Assembly (NCBI RefSeq): GCF_009931435.1
Contig: NZ_CP043415.1
Strand: one strand, 5' to 3'
Length of the DNA: 64,000 nucleotides
From: Escherichia coli
Lineage (GTDB): Bacteria; Pseudomonadota; Gammaproteobacteria; Enterobacterales; Enterobacteriaceae
The position numbers and the translations under genes were made by a program. This document shows positions 26,006-64,000 of the stretch, in pieces (within the stretch, counting starts at the first letter, position 1; each line of letters starts with the position of its first letter). The notes beneath the pieces were generated by a model, which ran no database searches, was not told the DNA's origin, and saw only the letters and a program-made list of their open reading frames with translations.

Positions 26006-26280
26006 GCAGGAAGAAAAAGAGAATAATCACAGGGAAGGTGATGTGATTTCTGACAGGCCATAACCAGAGAAGGCGGGGGAAAAGAACGGGCGCCGCAGGC
26101 GCACGTTCATCCCCGTTCCTGAAGGGAAACGACCTTCCTGAAGTCAGGTTGTTCATGCCCGTACAACATCAGCAAGGAGAAAGGGGCTACCGGCGAACCA
26201 GCAGCCCCTTTATAAAGGCGCTTCAGTAGTCAGACCAGCATCAGTCCTGAAAAGGCGGGCCTGCGCCCGCCTCCAGGTTG

Positions 26281-27923: not shown

Positions 27924-31844
<3,921 letters not shown>

Positions 31845-35881: not shown

Positions 35882-36111
35882 AATTTAGCCTCTTATGACG
35901 TTAATTAATGAAACCGTAAAGACTGTTCGTGCAGTCTCTGCGGTGTGGATTAAGCAGGTCCCTGACCTGCTTTTTTCATATCTGCGTCTGACGTTCTCCG
36001 GTGTTTTCCTCCTTCTGTTCCTGCGTTCTCATTACCTGCCAGCCGGATGACTGACAGAACACATAAATGCGTATTGCCGGAGCCTGAAATAAATCCTGAT
36101 TTTTAAAGAAC

Positions 36112-41586: not shown

Positions 41587-41594
41587 ACGATCGG

Positions 41595-43995
41595 GTAGCA
41601 GTGATGCATTACTGCATCACCGCCCCCTAAGAACCGTACGTGCCAGTTTCCCGGCATACGGCTCAAGCCTTTCTAAGCCCACTCTCATGAGCCGGTTTCA
41701 CTACATGTATACCTTTCGCATGAACAAGTGTGTGACACATCGGATGCAGCATAATCAAATTGGAGAGGCAGTTGCTCCCTCCATCGACTCGCCGTATGAT
41801 GTGATGAACCTGCCACTGGGAATCAGATGTAATCCTCTCATCACATATGGGGCATCGGCCCCGCTGCTCAAACCAGATTTGAATGAGCTTTTTCCGTCCT
41901 TGCAGTTTGTGCCGCATTTTGTCTGCACAACGCTCCTCAAAGTACATCTCCCATTGAGGATCGAACGGATTAGCTGCAATTTTAATCGGTTTAAACCGGT
42001 TGATAGGCGTATCGATTGCTTTCCTCAGATTTGCATACTGAGGCTTACCGTTGGCAAGGAGTTCTCCGGTAGCCGTGGAGAAAGACCAGTTTCGGGCACC
42101 TTGTTGATGGAAATATCTTTTCCGAATCCACTTCTTTCCCTTATTGGGATGACGCCGAACAGCCCAACGCCATAAAGCCAGCCAGATCTCATTGTCAACT
42201 TTGTTAAATGCGACCTTGGCCACAATGTGTTGATGGTAAGCCGCCCACCCTTTGATCATTGGGTTCAGCATGCGGATCAACGTAAGCTGATCCATAGCTT
42301 TGTTGCCTTTGATTACAGCGCGTATTTTCTTTAAAAAGGAACTGACATTGGCTTTAGAGGGTTTGATCAGCATCTTACCGCCATATTTGCGAATGTTCTG
42401 TCCAAGAAAATCAAATCCTTCCTCGATATGTGTGATTTTCGTCTTTTCCGGAGAAAGCATTAATCCTCTTTCAGCCATAAACCGCCTGACGACGGGTAAT
42501 ACCTGAGACTCAAGAAGTTCTTTTGACTCTCCAGTGATAATAAAATCATCAGCATATCTCACATAGTTAACTTTCGGGTTAACCAATCGTCCCTTGACTG
42601 TTCTCTTTTTAAACTCCGAAGCAAGAAGCGCCTCCAGTCCATCCAGAGCAATGTTAGCCAGTACAGGAGAAATTATTCCCCCCTGAGGAGTTCCTGAATT
42701 TACAGGGAATAACTGCCCCTTTTCCCTGTAACCCGCTTTAAGCCACTTTGTCAGGATTTGTCTGTCTGTTGAGGTGTTATCGATTAGCCATTGATGAGAT
42801 ATATTGTCAAAGCATCCCCGTATATCCCCCTCAAGCACCCATTCAGCGGATGTTTTCTGCGCAAGAACACAGAAGCACTGTGCTATCGCATCTGCAGTAG
42901 ACCTTCCAGTCCGAAAGCCGAAGGATCTCTGGTCAGCAGTGACTTCAGCAACGGGCTCAAGAGCCAGCAAATACAACGCCTGCATCGCCCGATCCTTCAT
43001 AGTGGGTATCCCAAGGGGACGAGACTTCCCATTTGACTTAGGTATATAAACCCGCTTAAGTGGCTGTGGTTTGTAACCACGCCGTTTCAGCAGGTTAATA
43101 GCAAGAAATTTAACCTCCGGGGAAGACCATGTCTGACCATCAACCCCAGGAGTACGTTTCCCGCTATTCTCTGTAACTCGTCTGACAGCAACTGCTCTGC
43201 CACTAAACGAGTGAGTCAGTATCCATTGCAAGGATTTGACCTTGCCATGTTTACCTTCTCGTGTTGCCTTTACGATACGCGCTTGCAGTCTCCGCACTTC
43301 CCGATAGCACTGACGCCAGTTGATACTGTGCCAGGAGTCACCGTTAAGTAAGGACGCACCTTTACAGGTTGTAGCCTGCTCAGTCATCTGCTTTTCCTTT
43401 CTGGAAGATTACTCAAACTCTCTCGTAATGAAAGACCCAGTGGAAGTCTGCCCGCTTTCGCGTAGGGTAATGTTGCCGGGCTCAACCCTTATCCGGTCCA
43501 TTACAGACTGGCATTCGCTTTTTCCACCTTCTTTTACCCGCACCGCCAACAGTATCCCTTGCGGTTAACCTGCCTCACGAGGCAGCGATACGGGCTTACC
43601 ATGTTCCACCTGAATAACAACAGTAGGTTAGACTCTGCTCACAACACCGGTGGTTTATTGTCCGTGTACCCCTAGCAAACAGAGGAGTAACCAACCACAT
43701 ACCTTTTGGTTCAAGCCTGTCAGCATCTTTGGCTTGTTCTGGTTAACGACGCTTCAGCAGTTCACATATGTTAGTCATGCTACCGAGCCTAGACCTCCTC
43801 CGCCTGATGCTGGCAGATTACATGTAACCTCACGGTTTCATGCGATCCGAAGATCCGGTTTCATTGTCCTGACAGCTTCACACCCCACCGTTACCAGTGA
43901 CGCATGTGTCAGTAGGCTACTGATGACGGAACATCAGGTTCCCTGACGGAATCGAACTCCGCTGGAACAATTATTCAGGCGACTTCATGTCGCAC
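41595..43995 (-). mobile_element. Group II intron (~2.4 kb) with intron-encoded RT-maturase-HNH protein
   Basis: Minus-strand 5' end GTGCGACATG at 43995; domain V GAGCCGTATGCCGGGAAACTGGCACGTACGGTTC at 41664-41631 overlapping the ORF stop; domain VI-like hairpin follows. 3' boundary approximate. Confidence 0.8.
41663..43387 (-). CDS. Group II intron-encoded protein (reverse transcriptase / maturase / HNH endonuclease)
   Basis: 574 aa; RT motif YVRYADDFII, maturase X region, C-terminal HNH block (CPICDERI…HHIIRRVDGGSNCLSNLIMLHPMCHTLVH). Confidence 0.92.
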   Translation of the reverse strand: MTEQATTCKGASLLNGDSWHSINWRQCYREVRRLQARIVKATREGKHGKVKSLQWILTHSFSGRAVAVRRVTENSGKRTPGVDGQTWSSPEVKFLAINLLKRRGYKPQPLKRVYIPKSNGKSRPLGIPTMKDRAMQALYLLALEPVAEVTADQRSFGFRTGRSTADAIAQCFCVLAQKTSAEWVLEGDIRGCFDNISHQWLIDNTSTDRQILTKWLKAGYREKGQLFPVNSGTPQGGIISPVLANIALDGLEALLASEFKKRTVKGRLVNPKVNYVRYADDFIITGESKELLESQVLPVVRRFMAERGLMLSPEKTKITHIEEGFDFLGQNIRKYGGKMLIKPSKANVSSFLKKIRAVIKGNKAMDQLTLIRMLNPMIKGWAAYHQHIVAKVAFNKVDNEIWLALWRWAVRRHPNKGKKWIRKRYFHQQGARNWSFSTATGELLANGKPQYANLRKAIDTPINRFKPIKIAANPFDPQWEMYFEERCADKMRHKLQGRKKLIQIWFEQRGRCPICDERITSDSQWQVHHIIRRVDGGSNCLSNLIMLHPMCHTLVHAKGIHVVKPAHESGLRKA

Positions 43996-44658: not shown

Positions 44659-45074
44659 GTACCGTTTATCACCGTCCGGCTGACCCTTCAGGCAATGACA
44701 GTTACGTGCGACCGTTGTTTGCCGATCGTTGCCAGGCCGGTTTTCCTTCGCCTGCCACTGATTATGCTGAGCAGGAACTGGATCTGAACAGCTATTGCAT
44801 CAGCAGACCTGCAGCCACCTTCTTTCTGCGCGCCAGCGGTGAATCGATGAACCAGGCTGGCGTGCAGAATGGTGATCTGCTGGTAGTGGACAGGGCCGAA
44901 AAACCACAACACGGGGACATCGTTATCGCTGAGATCGACGGGGAGTTCACCGTCAAACGACTGCTGTTGCGCCCACGCCCGGCACTGGAGCCGGTTTCAG
45001 ACAGCCCGGAGTTCCGCACACTGTATCCGGAAAACATCTGTATTTTTGGTGTTGTCACTCACGTTGTTCATTGA
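44655..45074 (+). CDS. impA: ImpA (UmuD-like), C-terminus altered by a deletion
   Basis: 139 aa with LexA-like cleavage-site region (RASGESM) and catalytic domain; ends …GVVTHVVH, shorter than expected for UmuD-family proteins. Confidence 0.85.
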   Translation: MSTVYHRPADPSGNDSYVRPLFADRCQAGFPSPATDYAEQELDLNSYCISRPAATFFLRASGESMNQAGVQNGDLLVVDRAEKPQHGDIVIAEIDGEFTVKRLLLRPRPALEPVSDSPEFRTLYPENICIFGVVTHVVH

Positions 45075-46031
45075 TTTGCGGGGGGTGAACCGTTGCATCT
45101 CTCCGGAGGTTTTTGGTCATCAGCTCAGGGAACAAGTAAAGAGCTGGACAGGACTCGCCATGGGGGTGGGCATTGCACCTACAAAAACGCTGGCCAAAAG
45201 TGCACAGTGGGCAACAAAGCAATGGCCACAGTTTTCCGGTGTGGTCGCGCTGACGGCAGAAAACCGTAATCGGACCTTCAAGTTACTGGGGCAGCAGCCT
45301 GTTGGTGAAGTCTGGGGAGTAGGACGCAGACTGACGGAAAAGCTGAATGCGCAGGGTATTAACACAGCGCAGCAGCTGGCGCAGGCTAACACGGCATTCA
45401 TCCGGAAAAACTTCAGCGTCATTCTTGAGCATACAGTACGCGAACTCAACGGCGAGTCCTGCATATCTCCGGAAGAAGCCCCACCGGCAAAACAGCAGAT
45501 TGTCTGTAGCCGCAGTTTTGGTGAACGAATCACAGACAAAGATGCCATGCACCAGGCTGTTGTTCAGTATGCAGAGCGGGCCGCAGAGAAACTACGTGGG
45601 GAGCGTCAGTATTGCCGGCAGGTGGCGACATTTATACGAACGTCACCCTTTGCAGTGAAAGCCCCTGTTACAGCAATTCCGCTGTGGAAAAGCTTCCATT
45701 GCCTACACAGGACAGCCGGGACATTATTGCCGCAGCATGCAGAGCGTTAAACCATGTCTGGCGTGAAGGGTACCGCTATATGAAGGCAGGAGTCATGCTG
45801 GCTGATTTCACACCATCGGGTATAGCGCAGCCGGGATTATTTGATGAAATCCAGCCCCATAAAAACAGCGAAAAGTTAATGAAAACACTCGATGAACTGA
45901 ACCAGTCGGGAAAAGGGAAAGTGTGGTTTGCGGGGCGAGGAACCGCCCCTGAATGGCAAATGAAACGGGAAATGTTGAGTCAGTGTTATACAACTAAATG
46001 GCGAGATATTCCCCTGGCCAGGCTGGGTTAG
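45070..46031 (+). pseudogene. impB: impB (UmuC-like Y-family polymerase), N-terminally deleted and frameshifted
   Basis: Translation aligns to UmuC only from about residue 100 (…GVGIAPTKTLAK…); reading frame shifts near 45650-45665, with the C-terminal part continuing in another frame (45612-46031). Confidence 0.8.
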
Positions 46032-49056: not shown

Positions 49057-49419
49057 TTAAGGAATTCTTTTGAGCATAGACACCGCATCGGACTCAAGCA
49101 TCGAAAACTGCACCCGGTGCCGTGCAGCCACATCCAGTGCAAATACCTTCGTGTAGACCTCCGTTGAACTGATGGACTTATGCCCCATCAGGCTCTGCAG
49201 GACCTTCAGCGGTATACCGACATACAGCATGTGCATCGCATAGGAATGGCGGAACGTATGTGGCGTGACCGGGACAGATAACGTCACACCGTCAGCGGTA
49301 ACCGCTTCCCCAATCCAGGCCCTGACCGTTCTGTCCGTCACTTCCCAGATCCGCGCTTTCTCTCTCCTGCCTGTCCGTTTATTACGCCGTTCCATGGGGA
49401 TTTTCAGTGTGGCCACCAT
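49057..49419 (-). pseudogene. Tyrosine recombinase/integrase remnant (C-terminal catalytic region only)
   Basis: 120-aa ORF containing HTFRHSYAMHMLYVGIPLKVLQSLMGHKSISSTEVYTKV (H-x-x-R … Y catalytic motif); no N-terminal domain in frame. Confidence 0.7.
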
Positions 49420-49820
49420 CGTCTGCAGCTGGCTGACGTACCAAGAGTCGGAGAGCGGAACCAGCCGGTGAGTCTACTGCCCGGCTGGCGTTCTTCCTGC
49501 CGTCCTGGCTGCTTTTTCTGTCCGCTGCTTCAGAGTGACCAGCAGGTATTTTGGCAGTTCATCATGAACCATCGACATATCCCTCAGTGAAGAGGAGGCT
49601 TATGGATGGTGTCGCTGCGGTAATTTCAGAACGTGCCATCATCCGTCCTGTATAGCGCATCTTCCTGCAGAAGGGTTTCAGCCGCCGCGGTAATAAATGC
49701 TCGTACCGTGCAGATAGCATTCTGCACACTCCCCGAACTGATATACACGGGTTCAAGAGATTCGGTAACTCCATCACGGTGTACCAGTGCGTTTCGGACC
49801 TTGATTACCCTCTCAAGTTC

Positions 49821-50405: not shown

Positions 50406-50593
50406 TTATACCTCACTGAATCTCCTGAAATCCCGCCTGGCATTTGTCTGTGCTCATTCCAGGATTAGATTTATTCAGTATCCATGCTTGGCGTAATGTG
50501 ATGCGATGTTTTTATCCAGAGGTATACCGCACGAAAGCATGAACCGCCCCGGAAATCCTGGAGACTAAACTCCCTGAGAAAGAGGTAAACAGG

Positions 50594-50920
50594 ATGACTA
50601 AAAATACTCGTTTTTCCCCCGAAGTCCGTCAACGCGCAGTTCGTATGGTTCTGGAAAGTCAGGGCGAATATGACTCACAGTGGGCGGCAATTTGTTCCAT
50701 TGCCCCAAAGATTGGCTGTACGCCGGAGACTCTGCGTGTCTGGGTTCGCCAGCATGAGCGGGATACCGGGGGCGGTGATGGTGGGCTCACCAGCGCTGAA
50801 CGTCAGCGTCTGAAAGAGCTGGAACGTGAAAATCGTGAACTGCGCTGCAGTAACGATATCCTTCGCCAGGCTTCCGCTTATTTTGCGAAGGCGGAGTTCG
50901 ACCGCCTCTGGAAAAAATGA
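50594..50920 (+). CDS. IS3-family transposase OrfA
   Basis: 108 aa, HTH and leucine zipper, [41 protein letters not shown]…. Confidence 0.9.
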
Positions 50921-51807
50921 TGCCACTGCTGGATAAGCTGCGTGAGCAGTACGGGGTCAGACCGGTATGCAGCGAACTGCATATTGCCCCGTCAACGTAT
51001 TACCATTGTCAGCAACAGCGACATCATCCGGATAAACGCAGTGCCCGTGCGCAGCACGATGACTGGCTGAAGAAAGAGATACAGCGCGTATACGATGAAA
51101 ATCACCAGGTATACGGTGTGCGTAAAGTCTGGCGTCAGTTGTTACGGGAAGGTATCAGAGTGGCCAGATGCACTGTGGCACGTCTCATGGCAGTTATGGG
51201 ACTTGCCGGTGTTCTCCGGGGTAAAAAGGTCCGCACTACCGTCAGCCGGAAAGCCGTTGCCGCATGCGACCGCGTAAACCGTCAGTTCGTGGCAGAACGT
51301 CCAGACCAGTTGTGGGTGGCTGATTTTACCTGGGTAAGCACATGGCAGGGCTTCGTTTATGTGGCGTTCATCATTGATGTGTTCGCCGGATACATCGTGG
51401 GATGGCAGGTCTCATCATCCATGGAAACAACATTCGTGCTGGATGCACTGGAGCAGGCGTTGTGGGCCCGTCGGCCGTCCGGCACAATCCATCACAGTGA
51501 TAAAGGTTCTCAGTATGTATCGCTGGCCTACACGCAGCGGCTTAAGGAAGCCGGATTACTGGCATCAACAGGGAGTACTGGCGACTCGTATGACAACGCG
51601 ATGGCGGAGAGCATCAATGGTCTTTACAAAGCGGAGGTAATACACCGTAAGAGCTGGAAAAACCGGACAGAAGTGGAACTGGCCACACTAACGTGGGTGG
51701 ACTGGTATAACAATCGACGATTGCTGGGAAGGCTGGGCCATACTCCTCCGGCAGAAGCAGAAAAAGCTTATTATGCTTCCATCGGAAACAATGATCTGGC
51801 AGCCTGA
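50917..51807 (+). CDS. IS3-family transposase OrfB (DDE integrase domain)
   Basis: 296 aa, overlaps the orfA 3' end. Confidence 0.9.
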
Positions 51808-51978
51808 GTTCACAGATAAAACACTCTCCAGGAAACCCGGGGCGGTTCATTCAGTGGTGAACAGTCCATTCCGGAGACGGAATATCTTGTTAAGGCTGTA
51901 TATTATACTGGCTGTAAACAACATGGCCACCAAGGACCATGTTGTTTACAGCATACCCTTGTTACAAAAGAATCCCCG

Positions 51979-54177
51979 TCAGAACAGCACTGAGTAGTTC
52001 AGACCAAAGGTTCGGCCCCGGCCTTTGTAGTCGTACAGTGAAGCAGGGCCGTAACCCGGGCTGTAGTACAGAGGTGCACGCTGTCCCCAGACAGTGGTAT
52101 AGTCACGGTCGAAGAGGTTCTCAACGCTGAAGCTGAGTGTTCCCACCGGAAGCAGCCAACTACTGATAAAATCGACGGTAGTGTAACCATTAATATCGTT
52201 ACCCTCTGCATCGCTTACGTCGAAAGAAGTGGTGCTCTGCACACGCAGACTCCACGGTTCCGGCGCCCAGCTAATGTAAGCTGTCGCTTTCGATGGACTT
52301 GATTCCTTCACGTCATATTTTTGCCATTGACCGTTCACTTTCGACTCGGTTTTCAGCACATTGAAGTTCACACCGGTACTCCAGTCAGTATCCGGGATCA
52401 GGTAGTCCACCGCACCTTCCACGCCGTAAATACGGCGCCTGTCGTCCTTCACACTGATGGTCAGATCTTTATTCCTTTCCACGCTCTTATTGGAAAGCGA
52501 GTAATATGCTGCGATTTGAGTCCGCAGGTTGTCACCGGTAAAGCGCCAGCCCAGTTCATAAGAATCGACTTTCACGCCTTCCAGCTTACTGTCGCTGACG
52601 TTCACGCTCTTTGTCAGGGGAAGATGGCCGTTCACTGCTGCACCATAGATGCCGCGACCATAATATTTCCCCGGATCCGGCAATGCCACCCCCTGGGAAA
52701 AATTGAACCATGCCTGCTGACGTTCGGTGATGTGCATCAGCAGACCAGCATTGAACAGAAAGTTATCGTAATCTACCGAACCACCAGGAATGGCGTCGGC
52801 AGATATCGCCTTCCCGGCAGCAATCTTCTGTTGCTGCATGTAGTCGATAAAATCATCTACCCTGTTCTCAGTATACTGATAGCGTACGCCACCGCTGACG
52901 GTAAAAATATCATTAATGTCATAGCTGGATTGCAGGAAGGCCGCCAGATTGGTGATGTCATATGACGGATAGCGCCCGGTGGTGTAAATCTTATGGTTGT
53001 TCAGCCCTCCGGAAGCACTTGCCTGAGCCAGATCGAAGAACATCTGGTTGGAGGTAAAGCGCTCATGCTCAGCATCCAGCCCCCAGGTGATTTGCCAGCC
53101 GTCCATCAGTTGGCTGTTCAGAGTCAGTTTCATGCCGTACTGGTCGGTATCCTGCTGTGACGAGGAGAAAGCCGTCGCCTGTTTATTCGCATTTACCGTC
53201 GGGAACGGGTAGAACCGCAACGACTCATCGCGGTAGTAAACCTGACCGACCAGTTCCTGTCTCAGGAAATCACTGTCAGAGTACTGCAGGCTGATCAAAT
53301 GCCGCTCAGTGCCGGGAATGCGGTCAGAATTCAGCCCCTTACTGACGTATGGTGTGCTGCTCCCGCTGATGGCGGAAAAGCCTTTCCCGAGATTAAGCCC
53401 GTAATTGTCGTCCCCCTGACTTTTATAGTACTGCGTTATCAGTTGAAGCTGCCGGGATTCATCGATGTTCAGCGTACCGGTTCCCATGATGTCCAGCCGA
53501 TTGGAGTGCTGCAGGCCGGTCTGGGTGTTATCAAGCAGGGTAGCATCGCCGTTACCGTCAAACCAGCCGCCAAATTTCTGATATGCCACGGAAAGACGTC
53601 CGGAGATATGGTCATTTCCGCCGGAGACAGCACCGGCAATGCGCTCATCGTGATCTTTACTGCTGTTAAAGCCACTTTTTGTGCCAGCCTCAAACTCCAT
53701 CATGGTTTCCGGCTGGCCTTTTTTGGTCACGATGTTTATCAACCCTCCGGTACTCCCGCCACCGTACAGGGCCGTCGCGCCGGAGATCACTTCAATATGG
53801 TCGATATTAAAAGGATCGACAGAGTCCAGTTGTCGGCTGTCGGAACGTGAAGAGTTGAGGCGCACACCGTCAATCAGGACAACCAGCGGGCGGCCACGCA
53901 TGTTCATACCGTAGTTGGTTCGGCTCTGGCTGCTGACATCAAGGCCGGGGATTAACTGAGCCAGTGCGTCTTTCAGCTCTTTACCGCCCTGAATCTGCTG
54001 CTCCAGTTCGGCATTTTCGATAACCCAGGTGGTTTGCGCCATCTCCGCTACAGTTCGATTGCTGCGGCTGGCAGACACTATGATCTCATTATCATCGTTT
54101 TGCTGGGCGACAGCTGGTGACAACACGACAAGAAGCAGCGGACCAAGAGCCCGGGGCATATACTTTTTGCGCATCAT
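51979..54177 (-). CDS. iutA: IutA, TonB-dependent ferric aerobactin receptor
   Basis: Start set at MMRKKYMPRALGP…, giving 732 aa; C-terminal TonB-box-family terminus …GLNYSVLF. Confidence 0.93.
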   Translation of the reverse strand: MMRKKYMPRALGPLLLVVLSPAVAQQNDDNEIIVSASRSNRTVAEMAQTTWVIENAELEQQIQGGKELKDALAQLIPGLDVSSQSRTNYGMNMRGRPLVVLIDGVRLNSSRSDSRQLDSVDPFNIDHIEVISGATALYGGGSTGGLINIVTKKGQPETMMEFEAGTKSGFNSSKDHDERIAGAVSGGNDHISGRLSVAYQKFGGWFDGNGDATLLDNTQTGLQHSNRLDIMGTGTLNIDESRQLQLITQYYKSQGDDNYGLNLGKGFSAISGSSTPYVSKGLNSDRIPGTERHLISLQYSDSDFLRQELVGQVYYRDESLRFYPFPTVNANKQATAFSSSQQDTDQYGMKLTLNSQLMDGWQITWGLDAEHERFTSNQMFFDLAQASASGGLNNHKIYTTGRYPSYDITNLAAFLQSSYDINDIFTVSGGVRYQYTENRVDDFIDYMQQQKIAAGKAISADAIPGGSVDYDNFLFNAGLLMHITERQQAWFNFSQGVALPDPGKYYGRGIYGAAVNGHLPLTKSVNVSDSKLEGVKVDSYELGWRFTGDNLRTQIAAYYSLSNKSVERNKDLTISVKDDRRRIYGVEGAVDYLIPDTDWSTGVNFNVLKTESKVNGQWQKYDVKESSPSKATAYISWAPEPWSLRVQSTTSFDVSDAEGNDINGYTTVDFISSWLLPVGTLSFSVENLFDRDYTTVWGQRAPLYYSPGYGPASLYDYKGRGRTFGLNYSVLF

Positions 54178-54179
54178 CG

Positions 54180-55517
54180 TTATTCCTGAATATTTGTTGT
54201 ATAGTGAGTTAAAGAAGCAGCCTCCGGCTGCGGTTTTTTCCGGCTGCCGCTGCGCCACTGAATCAGTGCGGGCGGCATACTGAGATCGAATAAATCACGC
54301 CCCAGTACGCGATTAAGAATACGTGCAGATCTCCAGGCCATCAGGCTGAGCTGGGGTTCGGCGATGCCATGAGTTTGCATGCTGGCGTTGACCGCAAAGA
54401 TGTTATTTTCTTTCGGGCCACTCCATTCCAGAGTGAAGTCATCACGCACTTTAAAGGTGTTCTTATCGTGCATGGTGATCAAGGGCATCAGTGAGGGAAG
54501 TATTTGTGGCAATGCAGAACGGTAACCTGTGGCGAAAATCACCACATCACTTTCCAGGCTCTCTCTGCCCCGATCCAGATGATGTTCCATCAATAACTTC
54601 CAGCCCGGACCACTACTTTCCAGAGTTGTTACCGAGCGGCTGGGTAGCAGACGGATATTTCTTGGTTTTCTCAGAACTTCAAAACGGTGGTACAACTCAC
54701 GATAAATGGTCAGTAAAGAATCGGCAGTGATGCCATCCGATGTCATTTTCTGCTCATCCAGTAACTGATGGCGAATATCTTCCTTCAGTCCGGAGAAGCC
54801 TGAAATATATTCAGGTGTAAAATACTCATCAGCAAAAGCAGCCTCATCCAGTGCGTTAAAATTATTACGCCGTGAGACCCAGTTTATTTCCGCCGCTTCT
54901 CCCCATTCCCCGCGTAATGCATTAAGGAACAGGTCTGCACCACTCTGTCCTCCACCAACCACAGTTATCCGTTTTCCACTCAGGTCCGGCCGACGAAGAT
55001 TCATTTCACTGGCATGGAAACAGGATTGTGTCACATGCTTCACACAGGGTGGTAAATAAGGTTGTTTTCCTGTACCAAGGCAGATATTGCGGGCAAAATA
55101 TTCTCCCCGACTGGTCTGAACCAGAAACAATCGACTTTTTTTGTCGAAATCAATATTTTCAACGGTATGACTGAAATACAGGTTATTCATATCTTCAGCA
55201 GCCCAGCGGAGATAGTCAGAAAACTCTTCACGGGATACTGTACGTAGTCTGCTTGTAAGGAAGCGATAGAACTTTTTGTGCTTCACCAGATAGTTAACAA
55301 AGCTGTAGGGATTTGTAGGTGCAACTGCACTGACCAGATCTTTCAGAAAGACAGTCTGCATATGACAATCCGGTACCAGCATACCCGGATGCCAGGAAAA
55401 ATGAGGATGTTCGTCAAAGAAGAGACAGTTCAGTTCTTCGATCTGATGTGACAATGCAGCAATACTGAGATTAAATGGCCCTGTCCCGACACCAATAAAA
55501 TCGACACTTTTTTTCAT
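54180..55517 (-). CDS. iucD: IucD, L-lysine N6-monooxygenase
   Basis: FAD/NADPH-binding motifs GVGTGPFNLS and GGGQSG; position in the iuc operon. Confidence 0.9.
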   Translation of the reverse strand: MKKSVDFIGVGTGPFNLSIAALSHQIEELNCLFFDEHPHFSWHPGMLVPDCHMQTVFLKDLVSAVAPTNPYSFVNYLVKHKKFYRFLTSRLRTVSREEFSDYLRWAAEDMNNLYFSHTVENIDFDKKSRLFLVQTSRGEYFARNICLGTGKQPYLPPCVKHVTQSCFHASEMNLRRPDLSGKRITVVGGGQSGADLFLNALRGEWGEAAEINWVSRRNNFNALDEAAFADEYFTPEYISGFSGLKEDIRHQLLDEQKMTSDGITADSLLTIYRELYHRFEVLRKPRNIRLLPSRSVTTLESSGPGWKLLMEHHLDRGRESLESDVVIFATGYRSALPQILPSLMPLITMHDKNTFKVRDDFTLEWSGPKENNIFAVNASMQTHGIAEPQLSLMAWRSARILNRVLGRDLFDLSMPPALIQWRSGSRKKPQPEAASLTHYTTNIQE

Positions 55518-57256
55518 GATTCATATTCCTGAGTTACCAGCCACAGCGGATTTTGCAGATTCTCAAGGTAATTCGGCAGCATGCGACTGCCGCCATCCTG
55601 GTCCGGCCAGGTCAGTTTTACCGGGTTCAGCACCACGCGAATGATTTGTGGCCTGAAGAGTGAGAAAAGCGCAAAACGCTCTGACATTTGTGGATGTTTG
55701 TTCATGTAATCACTCAACACTGCTGCCAGCAGTTGATAAAATCGCCTTTCAGGTACGCCAAGACGAACCATCAGTGGCGAAATAAAACGCAGTACTGTCA
55801 CGAAGTGACCCGTCTGCAAATCATGGATTAAGTAGTCCGCACTCAGACGGGATGTGACATCACGCACCTCCTGAGGCAAAGAGTCCATTTCGGGAAACGC
55901 TTCTTTCACCAACCGCATATCGCCCTGGAAGTCTTTCAGCAGAACACGCTGTGGTACCCCCTCTTTCATGGCGAGCGTTATATTTTGTCCGTGTGCAATA
56001 AGCGCGACACCGTAGCGGCAAAGCAGGTGATACAGCGGAACCACAACCACCCGGAACAATTGCGTAAGCCAGGTTTCAGCGTCCAGTCCGGAGCGGTCGA
56101 TATATGCGCCTGCCAGCGGCTGATTGTTTTCGTCGCACTCCATCAGTGTTGCCATCAGAACCGGACTTTCATCCGGTTTCAGCCAGCGGCACGGATTCTC
56201 CCGCCAGATAACACCAAGCATTTCCTGGTAGCGATAGGGAGCCCGGGCAAGCGCGGCATAGCCTTCATGGGACACATAGCCTGCAGCCGGTTCACCAAGG
56301 ATCACTGCGCCGCTTTGCACCAGGGTGGCGTCGGTCGCAAAAACCTGTTGCAGCCAGCGTGAAGCCAGTGGTCCGGCAGCGATATATCTGCCAGGGATCC
56401 CCCGGTAGCATGAGGTGTTGTAGATGGTCAGCGGCAGCTTGATATCCAGCCCTCCCCGGCGGCTGGCGTTGGTCAGGGTACGCAGCGACTGCTGGGCGAG
56501 CCACTGGTCGCCAAACTCGCCGAGAGACACCATCCTGCCTTCGGCAAAATCAGCGATGAAGTCGGTGGCGATTTTTTGCTGCCACTGCCACGGATGTACC
56601 GGCAGCGGCAGCCAGTTGTGATCCAGCCCGTTTTCCTGCCAGACCTGACTGAAGCGTGTAAACTCCTGCGGATCCATTGCGGCAGTCAACAACTGCTGAA
56701 TATCCAGATCGTTGTCGCAGCGCCAGATCATATGTTCACGTTTTACCGCCAGCCAGTGCAGTCTGAAGGTGTTGGCATACTCTGGCGCATATCGTTCCAG
56801 CGCCTCTTTGCCCCAGCCACGGCGACCTTTATTAAAAACGAATTTAGGATGACCGCTCAGCAGGCATTGCAGACGATCGGCATCAAGATTAATCAGGTCA
56901 CTGGCACTCAGTCCGCGACGGGCCTTCAGCAGTTGCAGGTCGCCCAGTAGCGTGGCATACAAATCCTGCATATGCTCTGCAACAGTGGCATCACTCATTG
57001 ACAGCACCGGCTTTAGCTGCATCAGCAGCGTCTGCGCCAGTACTGGTTCGTCCGTGCAGCGCAACGTTTGGGCATCAATCCACAGCCAGCCCCAGATACC
57101 ACGTTCAGCGATGAAGCGCCATTGTGCTCCCGGCAGGTTAATGCAGTAGTGGTCATCGCCCTGAGATTCCGCGTGGAAAACCTGCTCATACTCCATCTCA
57201 GACAACATTTTTGCCACCAGCCGACGGTTAACAAAATCCCAGTCCTTGTGATTCAT
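55514..57256 (-). CDS. iucC: IucC, aerobactin synthetase (NIS synthetase)
   Basis: 580 aa, IucA/IucC family; operon position. Confidence 0.9.
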   Translation of the reverse strand: MNHKDWDFVNRRLVAKMLSEMEYEQVFHAESQGDDHYCINLPGAQWRFIAERGIWGWLWIDAQTLRCTDEPVLAQTLLMQLKPVLSMSDATVAEHMQDLYATLLGDLQLLKARRGLSASDLINLDADRLQCLLSGHPKFVFNKGRRGWGKEALERYAPEYANTFRLHWLAVKREHMIWRCDNDLDIQQLLTAAMDPQEFTRFSQVWQENGLDHNWLPLPVHPWQWQQKIATDFIADFAEGRMVSLGEFGDQWLAQQSLRTLTNASRRGGLDIKLPLTIYNTSCYRGIPGRYIAAGPLASRWLQQVFATDATLVQSGAVILGEPAAGYVSHEGYAALARAPYRYQEMLGVIWRENPCRWLKPDESPVLMATLMECDENNQPLAGAYIDRSGLDAETWLTQLFRVVVVPLYHLLCRYGVALIAHGQNITLAMKEGVPQRVLLKDFQGDMRLVKEAFPEMDSLPQEVRDVTSRLSADYLIHDLQTGHFVTVLRFISPLMVRLGVPERRFYQLLAAVLSDYMNKHPQMSERFALFSLFRPQIIRVVLNPVKLTWPDQDGGSRMLPNYLENLQNPLWLVTQEYES

Positions 57257-58203
57257 TACAGACCGACCTCCGTGAAGAAGTGATGACGATCCGCCATCAC
57301 CATGCGCGAGCGCTTATGTGGGAAGTCGAACTCTTTAATTGTCCGGTATCCCGCAGGCTCAAGATGGCGGAACAGGCGCTGGTTATCGGTGCGTGGCTCC
57401 AGTACTGTGCGCTGCGTACGGGGCTCATCCAGCAGCAGGTAATGTGTCAGCCCGCGCAGCCAGCTTTGCACATAGTGGGCCCCGCGCCATTGCTGTTCAC
57501 CAACCAGCAGATGCAGGCCACGGTCAAAGGGCTGCCACGAATAGTGACGACCAATGCGGTCTTCCGCCGCCCAGTAGATTTCAAAATAGCTGAATGGCCG
57601 ATCGTCGAAGCACCCAATCAGCGGAAATGCATGTTTACCGGTGAGCTGGCGCTCCAGATAGGCGGTCTGTACCTCCAGTGAGCCACTTTGCTCCCAGAAA
57701 TACTCAACGCGCGGATCATTCATCCAGCGGGTGAAACGTTCTGCATCAGAAACGGGATCGGCAATGCGGAAACTCAGCATCCTGCGAATACGTGGATCGT
57801 AACGGCGGTAAACCTCACCCTGCGGACGGGGTGGGCGCTGCGGGAAATAAATCTCACGCTCTGCATCAAAAACCATTTCACCGGAGGCCCGGTTTGCCGG
57901 TGAACTCAACCATAACGGTAACTGCCAGAAGGCGGTACGATGGATAATGTCGCTTTTTACCTGCCCAAAAAGCGTCAGCGCCTGTGGCTCCTCACACCAT
58001 TCGGCCCAGGGGAGAGCCACTGCTGACAGTTGTGGTGCGGCGATAAATATCTGATCCAGCGCATCGCACAGCCACCCTGTCGGCAGCTCCCCGGGACAGT
58101 GCAACACCGCGCTATTGTCCAGTCCCCAGCCAAGATTCAGGGGCTTGTCGAGTTTTTCACAGCGCAGTCCATATCTGCTGTGAATAATGTTTGCCTCAGA
58201 CAT
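57256..58203 (-). CDS. iucB: IucB, N6-hydroxylysine acetyltransferase
   Basis: 315 aa; operon position. Confidence 0.9.
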   Translation of the reverse strand: MSEANIIHSRYGLRCEKLDKPLNLGWGLDNSAVLHCPGELPTGWLCDALDQIFIAAPQLSAVALPWAEWCEEPQALTLFGQVKSDIIHRTAFWQLPLWLSSPANRASGEMVFDAEREIYFPQRPPRPQGEVYRRYDPRIRRMLSFRIADPVSDAERFTRWMNDPRVEYFWEQSGSLEVQTAYLERQLTGKHAFPLIGCFDDRPFSYFEIYWAAEDRIGRHYSWQPFDRGLHLLVGEQQWRGAHYVQSWLRGLTHYLLLDEPRTQRTVLEPRTDNQRLFRHLEPAGYRTIKEFDFPHKRSRMVMADRHHFFTEVGL

Positions 58204-59928
58204 TCAGACCTCCTGAGCCTGCAGCGGGTTAGCGAAATCGAAATAGATCACCGAAGGGTCAACAATGGTGTTCTCGTTATGATCGTTCAGATAACAGAAA
58301 AAGTTACCTTTTACGTTCCAGTACGGACTTTCCAGCACGTAGTTGAGACAGGTTTTATGAGTCACCTGATCACGCACTTCAGCCAGCGATGCTCGTACAC
58401 GAGCCATCAGATTCGATTCGCTGTCCAGCCCGGCAGCCCCCAGCGCAGCGGTCACAGCAAAAGTGGAGTTAACCAGCAGGTAATAAGGGAAATAGCGCAG
58501 CAACTGCTCATGGGTGAAAATATTTTCCGCCTGCGCCTCGCCAATAGAATCGAGCCAGTCTGTCGCGTGAGGCATAAAAGCGCTGCCCTGACAGTCACGG
58601 TAAATAAATCCGACCGGCAGATCCCCAAGCATCTGGACAAGAATATTTTGCTGATGCGCCAGCAGCACCAGGCCGTAATCCGCTTCAGCCGTAAACAGCG
58701 GCTTTAGCACTTGCTGACAGTATGCATCGACCCATGCATGGGCGGCCTGTTGCACAGTGATACCGAGGCGATCGCTCAGGCGTTTTACCGCCGAAACCAG
58801 CAGCGAATCACCGCCATCAGGTGCGGCCTGAGTCAGGGAGACCAGTACGTTGGTCTGGCTTTTCGGCTGATCCACCAGCAGATTTTCACGCAGGGCAAAC
58901 AGACTTTCCTGCATGATGTTGCCGTTAAGATCGAGCAGCCCGGCCCAGCCATCCTCCTGCATTACCCGGAAAGTCGGGAAGCGGACCTGTAGCATCTGCC
59001 AGCCGTCGGTTTGAGCCAGGCGTGCCAGGCGCATCCCACGCTTCACTTCTTTCACGGACAGAGTACGGATGGAGTTGGTCAGCCGTACGCTCAGGGAGAA
59101 CTTGATCATATCGCGGCTGGTGGCACAGTAGAGGGAACGGGAAGAGGTGGTCGGCAGCCACGACGTGCCGGCCTCACCTAAGTCTTTAATCAGCCCTTTA
59201 GCAACAAGTGCCTGGCACCACCCCTGCTGCAAAAGATATTCCCCCTGCCACGGGTGCAACGGGAACAGCCATTGGTTGTCACTTAATTCGTTGAGTAACT
59301 GAGGCGCATTCTCTGCGGCAAATCGCGTCAGCCGCTGTTGAAGGTTGAGATGCAAACTTTCACCGGCGATTTGCGTTTTATCCACCGAAAACCACCGCAG
59401 TGGGAAGTGGGGTGCCATATCAGGCAGGTAGCGTTCAGCCTCCCGCCGGTTAAACGGTTCATGAGACTTAGGCGCAGGGTGGAAAGCGTGTCCTGTCAGC
59501 AGCGCCTGCTCAGCTTCGCCAAAATTCAACGCTTTTTCACGCAGGGCGGTCCAGTCATGACGGGCATCAATTGCCTGTTGCGTATGGGCGTGGCTTTCCA
59601 GCACGCGCTGGTGGAAAGTTTCGCAGAGGGGAACGGGCAGAAACAGTTGATGCCGTAGCTTATCAATAATAAGCCGGGAGAGAGTGGTAAAGTCGACAGG
59701 ATAACTGCCTGATGCCGTGACCAGACGTGCAGGAAATGCAAAGCGGTGATGCTGGGTTGGGGAGAAATAAGCCACTCTGAAATGGAGCGATTTCTGCTCA
59801 TCCAGCGGGATGATCAATTCGTCTGGCGGGTATTCTGTCAGTTTCCAGTCTGTGGTTTCACGAATCAGTGCATTCAGGAAGCACTGCGCAGCCACATCTG
59901 TGGCTGGTTTTTCAGAGGGCAGGGTCAT
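58204..59928 (-). CDS. iucA: IucA, NIS synthetase
   Basis: Start set at MTLPSEKPATDVAAQ (574 aa); the ORF-track N-terminal extension is the Fur box read as codons. Confidence 0.88.
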   Translation of the reverse strand: MTLPSEKPATDVAAQCFLNALIRETTDWKLTEYPPDELIIPLDEQKSLHFRVAYFSPTQHHRFAFPARLVTASGSYPVDFTTLSRLIIDKLRHQLFLPVPLCETFHQRVLESHAHTQQAIDARHDWTALREKALNFGEAEQALLTGHAFHPAPKSHEPFNRREAERYLPDMAPHFPLRWFSVDKTQIAGESLHLNLQQRLTRFAAENAPQLLNELSDNQWLFPLHPWQGEYLLQQGWCQALVAKGLIKDLGEAGTSWLPTTSSRSLYCATSRDMIKFSLSVRLTNSIRTLSVKEVKRGMRLARLAQTDGWQMLQVRFPTFRVMQEDGWAGLLDLNGNIMQESLFALRENLLVDQPKSQTNVLVSLTQAAPDGGDSLLVSAVKRLSDRLGITVQQAAHAWVDAYCQQVLKPLFTAEADYGLVLLAHQQNILVQMLGDLPVGFIYRDCQGSAFMPHATDWLDSIGEAQAENIFTHEQLLRYFPYYLLVNSTFAVTAALGAAGLDSESNLMARVRASLAEVRDQVTHKTCLNYVLESPYWNVKGNFFCYLNDHNENTIVDPSVIYFDFANPLQAQEV

Positions 59929-59970
59929 AGTCAAACAGCTCCCACACAGTAAAATAATAACAATTATGTC

Positions 59971-59989
59971 AATAATGATTCTCATTATC
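59971..59989 (-). promoter_or_regulatory. Fur box (iron box) in the aerobactin promoter
   Basis: AATAATGATTCTCATTATC, a close match to the Fur consensus GATAATGATAATCATTATC, just upstream of iucA. Confidence 0.8.
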
Positions 59990-60063
59990 AATAAGAAATG
60001 TTATTGTCAGATGAATTAATTTTACAAATAAACACAATTAATACATGGAGTTGAAACATTAAA

Positions 60064-61257
60064 ATGTCACCTGGGATCGAAGATACGCCCCAAAAACCAC
60101 TGTCCTGCTGGCCACTTGCGTTCAGTGCCGGGCTTCTCGGTATCGGGCAGAACGGTCTGCTGGTTGTGCTCCCTGTTCTGGTCATACAGACAAATCTGAG
60201 TCTGTCTGTATGGGCTGCCCTGCTGATGCTTGGCTCAATGCTGTTTCTGCCATCGTCCCCGTGGTGGGGAAAGCAAATTTCCCGTACTGGCAGTAAACCT
60301 GTGGTGTTGTGGGCTCTGGGAGGATATGGCATAAGCTTTACCCTGCTAGGGCTGGGAAGCGTGCTGATGGCTACCAGCGCCATAACAACAGCGGTGGGAC
60401 TGGGAATATTAATCATCGCCCGGATCGCCTACGGGCTGACCGTGTCGGCAATGGTGCCAGCCTGTCAGGTCTGGGCATTGCAGAGAGCAGGAGAAGGGAA
60501 TCGCATGGCCGCTCTGGCAACCATCAGCTCCGGCCTGAGTTGCGGCAGGCTATTCGGGCCGCTGTGCGCGGCAGCAATGCTGGCCATTCATCCTCTGGCG
60601 CCACTGGGGCTGCTGATGGCAGCCCCAGTGCTGGCGCTGCTGATGCTGCTGCGGTTGCCCGGCACACCACCACAGCCCACACCGGAGCGCAAGAGCGTCA
60701 GTCTGAAGCGGGATTGTCTGCCTTATCTGCTTTGCGCAATATTACTGGCTGCGGCGGTGAGCATGATGCAGCTTGGACTTTCGCCTGCCCTTACTCGCCA
60801 GTTCGCCACGGATACCACCGCCATTAGCCAACAGGTGGCCTGGCTGTTGGGTCTGTCCGCAGTAGCTGCGCTTATCGCGCAGTTCGGGGTACTCCGTCCG
60901 CAGCGCCTGACTCCGGTGGCCCTGCTCCTGAGTGCCGGAGTGTTGATGAGTGGTGGTCTGGCTATCATGCTCTCCGAACAGCTATGGTTGTTTTACCCGG
61001 GCTGTGCAGTGCTGTCATTTGGAGCTGCTCTGGCAACACCCGCTTATCAACTTCTACTGAATGATAAGCTGGCTGATGGCGCAGGCGCGGGCTGGCTCGC
61101 TACCAGTCACACACTTGGCTATGGACTGTGCGCTTTGCTGGTGCCGCTGGTATCGAAAACAGGTGTCGCAATCGCGCTGATTATGGCGGCATTATTTGCA
61201 ACTATATTATTTACCATTGTGTCTGTATTTATCTGGCATTACCGTGCTATCAAATAA
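60064..61257 (+). CDS. shiF: ShiF-like MFS transporter divergent from the iuc operon
   Basis: 397 aa, about 12 predicted TM segments; divergently transcribed from the aerobactin promoter region. Confidence 0.75.
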   Translation: MSPGIEDTPQKPLSCWPLAFSAGLLGIGQNGLLVVLPVLVIQTNLSLSVWAALLMLGSMLFLPSSPWWGKQISRTGSKPVVLWALGGYGISFTLLGLGSVLMATSAITTAVGLGILIIARIAYGLTVSAMVPACQVWALQRAGEGNRMAALATISSGLSCGRLFGPLCAAAMLAIHPLAPLGLLMAAPVLALLMLLRLPGTPPQPTPERKSVSLKRDCLPYLLCAILLAAAVSMMQLGLSPALTRQFATDTTAISQQVAWLLGLSAVAALIAQFGVLRPQRLTPVALLLSAGVLMSGGLAIMLSEQLWLFYPGCAVLSFGAALATPAYQLLLNDKLADGAGAGWLATSHTLGYGLCALLVPLVSKTGVAIALIMAALFATILFTIVSVFIWHYRAIK

Positions 61258-61642
61258 AGATATGATCATCACCTTACCGGAGTAAATCAGAGGATATGAG
61301 AGAGAACCTGCGTCTGATGAAAGCATGTCAGGCAGTAACACTGGCAAAAATGCACCGCATGGTACAGGGTATGTTCGGTATAAAACCGGCCGGTGTCACT
61401 TAAGTTGCATTGAAGTCATGCTGGTTGTGAGTGCAACATCACATGGCTCTGTCCGGATGCCTGCAGACAATGAGAACAGTGCGATTACTCATTGGGAATG
61501 AGATGAACGCATCCCCAACATTAGATCTGGGGCACCGTGATAAATAAAGGGGAAAATCAGAGAGGTGTCGAGCCTCGCAGATTTCCGGCATCATAGTGCC
61601 CAATACGGGATGCATAAAACTCTCTCAGAGTGGCGTTGATAC

Positions 61643-62682
61643 CTGAAAGAGCTGGAGCGAGAAAATCGTGAACTGCGCCGCAGTAACGATATCCTTCGCC
61701 AGGCTTCCGCTTATTTTGCGAAGGCGGAGTTCGACCGCCTCTGGAAAAAATGATGCCACTGCTGGATAAGCTGCGTGAGCAGTACGGGGTCAGACCGGTA
61801 TGCAGCGAACTGCATATTGCCCCGTCAACGTATTACCATTGTCAGCAACAGCGACATCATCCGGATAAACGCAGTGCCCGTGCGCAGCACGATGACTGGC
61901 TGAAGAAAGAGATACAGCGCGTATACGATGAAAATCACCAGGTATACGGTGTGCGTAAAGTCTGGCGTCAGTTGTTACGGGAAGGTATCAGAGTGGCCAG
62001 ATGCACTGTGGCACGTCTCATGGCAGTTATGGGACTTGCCGGTGTTCTCCGGGGTAAAAAGGTCCGCACTACCGTCAGCCGGAAAGCCGTTGCCGCATGC
62101 GACCGCGTAAACCGTCAGTTCGTGGCAGAACGTCCAGACCAGTTGTGGGTGGCTGATTTTACCTGGGTAAGCACATGGCAGGGCTTCGTTTATGTGGCGT
62201 TCATCATTGATGTGTTCGCCGGATACATCGTGGGATGGCAGGTCTCATCATCCATGGAAACAACATTCGTGCTGGATGCACTGGAGCAGGCGTTGTGGGC
62301 CCGTCGGCCGTCCGGCACAATCCATCACAGTGATAAAGGTTCTCAGTATGTATCGCTGGCCTACACGCAGCGGCTTAAGGAAGCCGGATTACTGGCATCA
62401 ACAGGAAGTACAGGCGACTCGTATGACAACGCGATGGCGGAGAGCATCAATGGTCTTTACAAAGCGGAGGTAATACACCGTAAGAGCTGGAAAAACCGTG
62501 CAGAAGTGGAACTGGCCACACTAACGTGGGTGGACTGGTATAACAATCGACGATTGCTGGAAAGGCTGGGCCATACTCCTCCGGCAGAAGCAGAAAAAGC
62601 TTATTATGCTTCCATCGGAAATAATGATCTGGCAGCCTGAGTTCACAGATAAAATACTCTCCAGGAAACCCGGGGCGGTTCA
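61643..62682 (+). mobile_element. IS629/IS1203-like element, 5'-truncated copy (about IS positions 271-1310)
   Basis: Near-identical to the complete copy from the orfA 3' part through the right inverted repeat; left inverted repeat and orfA 5' end absent. Confidence 0.85.
61750..62640 (+). CDS. IS3-family transposase OrfB (second copy)
   Basis: 296 aa, differs from copy 1 at about 3 residues. Confidence 0.85.
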
Positions 62683-64000
62683 GCATGACCGGATTTTTAT
62701 CAGTGGGTAGACAGTTGGGAGTGAAGCCTGAACACACCCATTGTTGTCTGTGCACATCAAGCGTGGCCAGAATACGACCCGACGCGCTGTAAATTGCAAA
62801 CTGATGTGTATATACCGAACCGGTATATCCTGGCGGTACAGGGTTTATTTTTAACCATAGGAATTTATGACCACAACGTGTCAGATAATTCCAGACATGA
62901 ACTATTGATGCGCGCATTTAGTTCCTTAGTAAAAAGTCACCAATGGTAATTATGATGTGCAGCATAATCAGCTGCACATACCTCTACATCTGTCACTCTA
63001 ATGACTTTCTCCTACCGCAATCATCACTCCACTGATAATAATCAGACATATAGACACATTATTAAATTAACGAATGGCCGTTCCGGTGAGATCCGATTTT
63101 CTGTCTTATAACAACTTTCCGGAAGTGTAACACGGTTGCGTCTTGGCTCTTGCACCCTTTTCTGTCGTTGTGAACGGGCCCACAGGGAATGAAGGAGACA
63201 CAATATATAGTGTCATTAGCATCTAAATTAAGCACTATATGTTGTGCTGACAGAAGGTGGCGTTGTTGTGGGGGAAAAGGAAGATCCGTAACTATCAGGA
63301 CTCTGACGATTAGTCTTAAGACTGTCGGTAAATTAAGTGATATCAGTTGTCAGGATATTCATGGAGTCAGTCTGTATGCACCTTTGCCATTGAAACAAAC
63401 ATATGAAGTGTACTTCGGATATGACCGTATGTTCAGGAAGTACGGCAGATTGAGTCGAAAATTACCTGTAAAGACAGACATCAGAAAAACAGTGCTCGCC
63501 GCAGACCGGTGACCGGGCGAAGCCCGCGAACCGGCGAGGAAGCGCAATGGATCTGTAGTTACAGTGAGCAGGTACGCCCTGAAGCCTTCATAATCGGTAG
63601 TGTATGCTGTTTTTCTGGAATGATTTATCCACATATCCGGAGGCCCGATCCAGTAAACAGATCCATGAATGATCAACAAAGGATCCATTAAAGATCCCCA
63701 TATCTCTGCAAACCTTGTCACTCATGGGCCGGGACTACGATCACATAAGCTGTGGCATGTTACTGATAAACTGTAACATGCTAATGATAAGCTGTATTCA
63801 GTAATCCATATACTGAAGTAAGTTAATGACATAAACTATGGTCAGTATGCCAGACTCAGTTGTTAAATACAGGCTGCAGGTTTTTCTTCAGTCAGTTAGC
63901 GGAGTTCTGACACACGATTTTCTGTTTATTCTTTTACTGTCCACAGGCTGGAGGCTTTCTGGAAAACGAAAATTCAGACATCAAAAAACTGTTCGGCGAG

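Follow-up and report, generated by a model that had tools for sequence, protein, structure and literature searches.

The aerobactin locus and its flanking insertion sequences

We analyzed a 64,000-nucleotide stretch of Escherichia coli contig NZ_CP043415.1, referred to below as the window, in which an aerobactin operon lies between two copies of one insertion sequence (IS). Comparison of the window with itself by BLAST gives only one long repeat in this region, formed by a complete left copy of 1310 bp, here termed IS-A, and a 5'-truncated right copy of 1040 bp, termed IS-B, which align on the same strand without gaps and with 10 mismatches over the 1040 bp that they share (IS positions 271-1310; 99.04% identity). 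The two arms are 10.8 kb apart, and the cargo between them comprises the minus-strand genes iutA, iucD, iucC, iucB and iucA and a plus-strand MFS gene, shiF, with every open reading frame (ORF) open (Table 1). A preliminary description of this DNA had staked its case on about 1 kb of homology between the copies, which is present, and it proves correct to the base, from the self-comparison, the ORFs and the RefSeq names, in the type and orientation of the element, the extent of its truncation, the cargo and the coordinates. The identical arrangement occurs in 15 independently sequenced complete plasmids from the UK, the USA, China, Germany and elsewhere and hence is not an artefact of assembly; that the repeat pair arose through misassembly or is a chance similarity is barely conceivable for 1040 bp at 99% identity in a structure that recurs in this way.

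By its size, its inverted repeats, its overlapping ORFs with a -1 frameshift signal, its DDE transposase and the 3-bp target duplication, IS-A belongs to the IS629/IS1203/IS3411 group of the IS3 family. Its left and right terminal inverted repeats (IRL and IRR) are 25 bp long and imperfect, with 22 of 25 positions matching and TG...CA ends. The OrfB proteins of IS-A and IS-B score 312.9 and 313.7 bits, respectively, against the NCBIfam model for IS3 family transposases (NF033516; cut-off 160), and the RF01497 pseudoknot is found at the same score in both copies (threshold 50). With annotated copies serving as proxies for the ISfinder IS629 reference, IS-A is 95.9% identical to a copy named IS1203 family by PGAP and 98.9% identical to the copies of O26:H11 strain 11368. 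Solitary IS629-type copies at other loci are flanked by 3-bp duplications (TAA in L004, TCT in L006 and GTG in L016), and the published target duplication of IS629, among the isoforms of which IS3411 is listed, is 3-4 bp (PMC3271280). The identity of IS-A to O26:H11 and bovine-strain copies that have 3-bp duplications of their own is 98.9-99.0%, and its reading frames are open and differ from theirs by 3 plus 3-4 residues, such that IS-A evidently encodes an intact transposase close to isoforms that are evidently active. IS-B, the first base of which is IS position 271, has no IRL and is also without the promoter region and codons 1-72 of orfA. The IRRs of the two copies are identical across the terminal 27 bp, and the outermost ends of the block are the IRL of IS-A and the IRR of IS-B.

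The gene names of the cargo were taken from the RefSeq annotation of a 99.9%-identical plasmid, and they rest on that annotation because NCBIfam has no equivalog models that name Iuc proteins, the matches there being to distant siderophore-synthetase families below the cut-off. In the divergent promoter region of iucA and shiF, a 19-mer on the minus strand (GATAATGAGAATCATTATT) matches the generally known Fur consensus at 17 of 19 positions. The role of shiF as an auxiliary aerobactin export factor is described in PMC7545054 and PMC9997749, both of which cite Genuini 2019. Taken together, the gene set, its order, the identities and the predicted Fur operator fit an aerobactin locus, iucABCD-iutA with shiF.

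Table 1. Positions in the window of the IS arms, the aerobactin cargo and the flanking duplication.
Feature	Position	Strand	Basis or remark
Left GCA of 3-bp direct duplication	50537..50539		Base-level comparison with empty site
IS-A, complete IS629/IS1203-group element, IS3 family	50540..51849	+	IRL 50540-50564, IRR 51825-51849
IS-A orfA	50594-50920	+	Intact, 108 amino acids
IS-A ALIL frameshift pseudoknot	50875-50991	+	Rfam RF01497, 117.8 bits
IS-A slippery A-run	~50912-50918	+	Read from sequence
IS-A orfB	50917-51807	+	Intact, 296 amino acids; overlaps orfA at A-run
Native spacer, IS-A IRR to iutA stop	51850..51978		130 bp
iutA, ferric-aerobactin outer-membrane receptor	51979..54174	-	ORF; RefSeq name; TIGR01783 (TonB-dependent siderophore receptor), 631 bits
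iucD, aerobactin biosynthesis	54180-55517	-	Open ORF; RefSeq name
iucC, aerobactin biosynthesis	55514-57256	-	Open ORF; RefSeq name
iucB, aerobactin biosynthesis	57256-58203	-	Open ORF; RefSeq name
iucA, aerobactin biosynthesis	58204-59928	-	Open ORF; RefSeq name
Fur-box-like operator, iucA/shiF divergent promoter region	59971..59989	-	Read from sequence, 19-mer
shiF, MFS transporter, auxiliary aerobactin export factor	60064..61257	+	ORF; RefSeq name is MFS transporter
IS110-family left-end remnant (non-coding region and ~10 codons)	61497..61642	+	~80% identity to sequence upstream of IS110-family transposase genes
IS-B, IS629-type copy without positions 1-270	61643..62682	+	Pseudoknot 61708-61824, open orfB 61750-62640, IRR 62658-62682
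Right GCA of 3-bp direct duplication	62683..62685		Base-level comparison

Acquisition of the block by the plasmid

Over their full length, the 14.2 kb around the block match 12 complete E. coli plasmids (88-172 kb) at 99.7-99.9% identity, and three further plasmids carry the block with a deleted right end. The block-carrying plasmids are conjugative and of the IncFIA/FIB(/FIC) type, with cattle, veal, yak, mastitis milk and human Shiga-toxin-producing E. coli (STEC) as their sources. Elsewhere the window consists of the transfer and leading region of an F-type plasmid, with tra genes, FinP/traJ, sok and psiB, and the RepFIB repB lies just past the window end.

The block (50540-62682; 12,143 bp) has the triplet GCA on both of its outer flanks, while the triplets beside IS-A alone differ (GCA versus TTC) and neither copy has a duplication of its own. 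When the outer flanks are joined with a single GCA, the resulting 600-bp query is contiguous at 99.8% identity in seven other plasmids, which are of the O91:H21 type and carry ehx; in one of these (L003) the empty site reads ...CACGAAAGCATGACCGG..., with one GCA. The site and the GCA are the same in all nine of the occupied plasmids that were extracted. The GCA on both flanks and the seven uninterrupted sites with one GCA mean that the block came as one discrete acquired unit; the preliminary description had mentioned neither this duplication nor the empty sites. It sits where an IS629-type insertion event occurred, and the operon is not native to the plasmid backbone. An operon that had always belonged to the backbone, and on either side of which an IS629 later inserted independently, with one of the two copies then becoming truncated, would find some encouragement in the abundance of IS629 in these hosts (a median of 4 places per genome and up to 53), but it is highly improbable, given that the flanks directly adjoin each other in related plasmids, that the copies lack individual duplications, and that the truncated copy and its identical junction are shared with chromosomal islands.

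Whichever route it took, the block entered the plasmid once, as a single event. PLSDB holds 15 occupied plasmids, all with the block at one site, and no other plasmid context for the truncation junction, the sixteenth match being a 1.4-Mb record that is evidently chromosomal. The cargo sequences of the plasmids group in a single clade with seven fixed differences from the chromosomal islands, the cargo of which differs from that of the window at 15-19 of 9,790 bases. It is these seven fixed differences, and the lack of another plasmid context in PLSDB, that establish the single entry.

Chromosomal ancestry of the truncated arm and the cargo

The junction at which the upstream sequence meets IS position 271 is present at full length in 201 of 5,426 complete E. 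coli genomes, and the 343 bp upstream of it are present in 200; in the species-representative genome set the junction has no matches. Most carriers have it in chromosomal islands of O145, O111, O26, O103 and commensal strains. In the chromosomes of O145, O111, MS 200-1, 3426 and 6629, the identical fusion of an IS110 remnant to IS629 position 271 accompanies iutA-iucDCBA-shiF at 99.8% identity and the same 239-bp spacer. The truncation is thus evidently old; it predates the arrival on the plasmid and came with the cargo. The preliminary description had taken it as a sign of past rearrangement at this plasmid boundary, a view that the identical junction in 201 genomes, mostly in chromosomal islands, contradicts. 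Alongside these likenesses, the islands differ from the block in that their neighbors are yeeU/cbtA, cah and ibrAB, that they have no duplication around the block, that their right flank is constant, and that the IS on the iutA side is either a 259-bp 3' fragment or a complete IS1203/type-I copy, located 75-87 bp further out.

The segment fused to IS-B is the left-end remnant of an IS110-family element. In uropathogenic E. coli 536 and in RM10410 the similar segment runs directly into a transposase start codon, while the remnant in the window has an internal deletion of ~29 bp that removes the ATG and leaves ~10 codons before the fusion to IS629 position 271. The junction joins two internal positions, which points to an old illegitimate deletion and not to an event at an IS end. 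The stretch 61337-61642 was also considered as the end of an IS66-family element, as its matches adjoin IS66 tnpB, but this was rejected because in two loci the similar segment has different upstream contexts and runs into an IS110-family transposase start codon. The region retained in the remnant is the one that encodes the guide ('bridge') RNA in intact relatives, and it has no Rfam match.

Beyond IS-B, the right flank read from the sequence is the same in the O145 (L002) and O111 SD134209 (L004) chromosomes, and the same helix-turn-helix pseudogene is the next gene past IS-B in four more islands (L012-L015); the only other right flanks seen are those of O111:H8 2009C-3675 (L005) and of the plasmids. 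A group II intron interrupts the truncated IS629 copy in the islands of H3 and 3426 (L012 and L014; 13344-16611), and the operon of H3 moreover breaks off within iucB, where it is fused to a truncated cah gene.

The boundary on the iutA side is more variable. The distance from the IRR to the iutA stop is 216 bp in O111 and in the widespread island form, 204 bp in O145 and 130 bp in the plasmids, where the spacer is 75 bp shorter than in the O145 islands and 87 bp shorter than in those of O111. A CFT073-like context (L007) shows the native sequence that follows iutA. All three IS boundaries have the same orientation and none has a duplication of its own, and this nested series of IRR boundaries, at L002 9310, L005 6310 and window 51849, suggests either repeated IS-adjacent deletions or a hot spot of insertion. 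The widespread island form (MS 200-1, 3426 and 6629) has only a 259-bp 3' fragment of the IS (positions 1052-1310), preceded by IS66 genes. Among complete E. coli genomes the plasmid-type junction of IS-A and the iutA side is contiguous only in 7 plasmids, and in JGI metagenome contigs there are no matches to it or to the predicted donor left junction with IS-A at the plasmid-type position (...ATATTGTTATTC joined to TGAACCGCC...).

The plasmid copy is tied to the chromosomal island of O111, O145 and O26 strains and not to the ColV lineage. pColV-K30 and the ColV/ColBM-type plasmids resemble the block in carrying an IS-bracketed aerobactin operon with shiF on an F-type plasmid, but their flanking element is IS1 and the ColV-type cargo is only 94-96% identical. 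The preliminary description had contrasted the block with the IS1 flanks of classical ColV plasmids, and rightly so, since IS1A adjoins iutA in the ColV-type plasmid pA338_p1 (L006) and the window contains no IS1 terminal repeat, even when 3 mismatches are allowed. Apparent IS629 flanks of the operon in ColV-type plasmids were rejected, as these were unrelated IS copies joined by the search tool.

Recombination between the two arms

The comparison of the arms covered IS-A and IS-B from nine plasmids, the chromosomal IS-B, of which three islands have the same sequence, and several independent isoforms. On the plasmids, IS-B combines stretches of the chromosomal IS-B type with others of the IS-A/O26 type, and the IS-A/O26-type tracts have right ends at ~863 (yak and RHB09), ~995 (the window and FDAARGOS_1058), ~1189 (BCE049 and NADC1036) or ~1250 (C301). 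A mutation at IS position 353 (353A) is present in both arms of RHB40 only, in two lineages IS-B has acquired the 307T of IS-A, and the IS-A of RHB40 carries IS-B alleles at 1127-1128. The cargo has just 1-8 substitutions in 9.8 kb among the plasmids (16-21 for RHB40). The conversion tracts differ while the cargo is nearly invariant, and hence conversion between the arms is frequent relative to point mutation. Since the arrival of the block the arms have recombined without crossing over, with IS-A progressively overwriting IS-B across the lineages, and the locus therefore displays rapid concerted evolution of two IS arms 10.8 kb apart.

The direct repeats had been expected to allow homologous recombination that excises or amplifies the iron-uptake module. 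The nested tracts in nine sister plasmids and the position 353 mutation in both copies of one lineage bear out the recombination, whereas neither an excision product nor a tandem amplification is found in PLSDB or in the 5,426 complete E. coli genomes: a 1810-bp flank-IS-flank construct, which represents the excision product, or a precursor with a solitary IS, has no full-length match in PLSDB or the RefSeq complete genomes, and the occupied plasmids have one copy of the cargo and 2-3 IS629 places. In the UK cattle plasmid pRHB40-C03_2 (RHB40; L011) and two relatives, a 1,551-bp deletion (window 62022-63572; at 14022/14023 in L011) has taken out 890 bp of the backbone flank together with the final 661 bp of IS-B, its IRR among them, and with the loss of this IRR compound transposition of the block is impossible in that lineage.

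Route of entry

The alleles of the two arms bear directly on how the block reached the plasmid. IS-A has O26-type alleles at 285 and 695-1151 and then chromosomal-type alleles (1189G, 1204C, 1250C and 1283C), while IS-B has chromosomal-type alleles at 285 and, in the least-converted lineages, at 868-1128, and then the O26-type 1250T and 1283T. Markers on either side of ~1151-1250 are reciprocally exchanged between the arms, and at 1151, 1204 and 1251 the arms agree, as they should near a crossover. This reciprocal pattern is not explained by conversion between the arms because successive one-way conversions cannot swap alleles. The switch point lies within positions 1052-1310, the sole homology that the widespread island form has downstream of iutA, and the 259-bp fragment of strain 3426 shares 1189G with IS-A. 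Complete genomes contain no independent IS copy with the allele combination of IS-A, the best non-self match being 99.0%.

We propose, with middling confidence and from these sequence comparisons, that a segment of a chromosomal island of the 'PAI iuc/iut' type may have been captured in a RecA-dependent manner at an IS629 resident on an IncFIA/FIB-type conjugative plasmid, and we favor such a capture over transposition. A lone type-II (O26-type) IS629 would first have inserted at the plasmid site and generated the GCA duplication. RecA-dependent recombination would then have taken place between this resident element and the IS629 sequences on the two sides of the island operon, the partners being the 3' fragment or copy on the iutA side and the old 5'-truncated copy on the shiF side. 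Either an excised circle, formed by recombination between the IS segments of the island, would have integrated by one crossover, or an F-prime-like cointegration at one IS would have been followed by resolution at the other. The outcome would be a complete hybrid IS on the left and a truncated hybrid IS on the right, with the duplication of the resident element around the block. The data show that, since the arrival of the block, the Fur-regulated operon has remained intact and has spread among cattle-associated E. coli by conjugation. Capture predicts a left arm that is resident-type and then donor-type past the crossover, and the reverse for the right arm, and this matches the observed pattern. 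The potential donor islands have direct-orientation IS segments on both sides (the 259-bp fragment or a complete copy past iutA, and IS-B past shiF).

Several points weigh against capture. Of the two junctions of IS and cargo, the right one is identical to that of the chromosomal islands, but the left one lies 75-87 bp nearer to iutA than in any sampled island, such that an unsampled donor or a later IS-adjacent deletion has to be assumed. The reciprocal pattern is drawn from only 2-3 informative sites on the 3' side, and IS629 isoforms in E. coli are commonly mosaic, as in the copy of 2013C-4974, so that the patterns of the arms could predate the arrival or involve third copies. The non-O26 patch of IS-A at 93-126, moreover, cannot have come from IS-B. 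No precursor plasmid with a solitary IS629 at the site was found in PLSDB or the complete RefSeq E. coli genomes, to which we give little weight as close sister plasmids free of the unit are unsampled. Lastly, a 3-bp duplication around an IS-bounded unit is the textbook sign of compound transposition, for which the parts appear to be available, IS-A having intact orfA and orfB, the frameshift signal and both inverted repeats, and IS-B an intact IRR.

It is possible, although we consider it the less probable course, that the block moved in just this way, with the OrfAB of IS-A pairing its own IRL with the IRR of IS-B and the 12.1 kb moving as a unit, such that the GCA was made directly. This would follow the copy-out/paste-in route of the IS3 family, with a circular intermediate in which the ends are abutted, and the loss of the IRL from IS-B would stabilize the unit by leaving IS-A alone or the whole block as the usable pairs of ends. 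The length of the duplication is that of IS629, the empty site is exact, an intact IRL and an intact IRR form the outer ends, IS-A is intact and near to evidently active isoforms, and the failure to find the solitary-IS precursor is also in its favor. Compound transposons of the IS3 family do exist, such as Tn3411. Hence the block has two IS copies with an outer IRL and IRR, one arm with an intact transposase, and a duplication with an empty site, although the last of these is also predicted by capture. Against such a movement stand the single insertion site among the 15 plasmids, the chromosomal copies with a different left arm and no duplication, the lack of further contexts in the metagenome and genome scans, and a unit size of about 9 times the length of the IS; in none of these three sets did the unit turn up at a second, independent site with another duplication. 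Transposition would also not be expected to give the reciprocal arm pattern, with the switch in 1052-1310, and would need a recombination step in the donor or conversions by third copies.

That the block might still be an active IS629 compound transposon, of a kind rare in the IS3 family in which the second arm is a one-ended stub that provides only an IRR, seems doubtful to us from its sequence. If it were so, aerobactin could move independently of RecA between the chromosomes and conjugative plasmids of cattle-associated and Shiga-toxin-producing E. coli. More generally, capture at a resident IS gives the same picture, and hence a target duplication around an IS-bounded block is not by itself proof of compound transposition.

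Comparison with known systems

Tn3411 is a citrate-utilization compound transposon flanked by direct copies of IS3411. It resembles the block in having direct repeats of the same IS group around a metabolic cargo and 3-bp duplications, but both of its arms are complete and its transposition has been shown experimentally, whereas the block has one stub arm, an aerobactin cargo, and a transposition that could only be proposed from sequence. The capture that we favor has its counterpart in the formation of F-primes, in which recombination between a plasmid IS and a chromosomal IS moves the intervening DNA to the plasmid and leaves direct IS repeats at the boundaries. Classically this has been described for IS2, IS3 and gamma-delta in laboratory F, while the case for the block is indirect and built on allele mosaics. 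The SHI-2 and SHI-3 islands, which are chromosomal, integrated at tRNA genes and equipped with a P4-type integrase, differ from the block in that it resides on an F-type plasmid and has only the cargo and IS-B in common with islands.

A putative composite transposon for iuc3 in Klebsiella pneumoniae from pigs is 16.2 kb in size and is flanked by ISKpn78 (IS407 group), truncated on both sides (PMC9997749). This unit likewise places an aerobactin operon and a shiF-like MFS gene between IS3-family copies on IncF plasmids of livestock bacteria, but it has extra cargo, no target duplication or empty site is reported for it, and its authors consider it immobile (PMC9997749). An aerobactin fragment mobilized by IS26 has also been described in K. 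pneumoniae (PMC7763553). Our literature search found no description of an aerobactin transposon bounded by IS629, IS1203 or IS3411, and the sequences of the block are already public and automatically annotated.

Aerobactin is of major importance for fitness and virulence, and how it spreads is governed by its transfer to conjugative plasmids. The locus documents one such transfer into the IncFIA/FIB plasmids of bovine, yak and human STEC isolates, with exact boundaries and an empty site. The block is an ordinary kind of mobile virulence module, the entry route of which can partly be read from its sequence. The analysis delimits the unit exactly, traces its ancestry to chromosomal islands, provides evidence on how it entered the plasmid and shows that its arms evolve in concert. 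The weight of these findings is modest, and they leave the understanding of such elements unchanged.

Other features of the window

The leading region contains further mobile and repeated sequences. An IS21-family element of 1.95 kb (28709-30658; IstA 28795-29817, IstB 29814-30596) interrupts a ParB/Spo0J-like leading-region gene; it is absent from an otherwise 100%-identical stretch of NZ_CP065971.1, and up to 8 bp are seemingly duplicated at its ends. A group II intron with an ltrA reverse transcriptase/maturase gene is located at 41590-43938 on the minus strand (Rfam RF00029 and RF02012). Three diverged direct copies of a 0.4-0.65 kb repeat (25394-26023, 32764-33408 and 36111-36548; 96% and 83% identity) are found near ssb, psiB and hok-type genes, where RefSeq annotates short partial 'hypothetical' ORFs. 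To the left of the insertion site, according to the annotation of a near-identical RefSeq plasmid, are a truncated and frameshifted umuC (45064-46031) and a tyrosine recombinase pseudogene (49057-49600) with an internal stop and a missing N-terminus.

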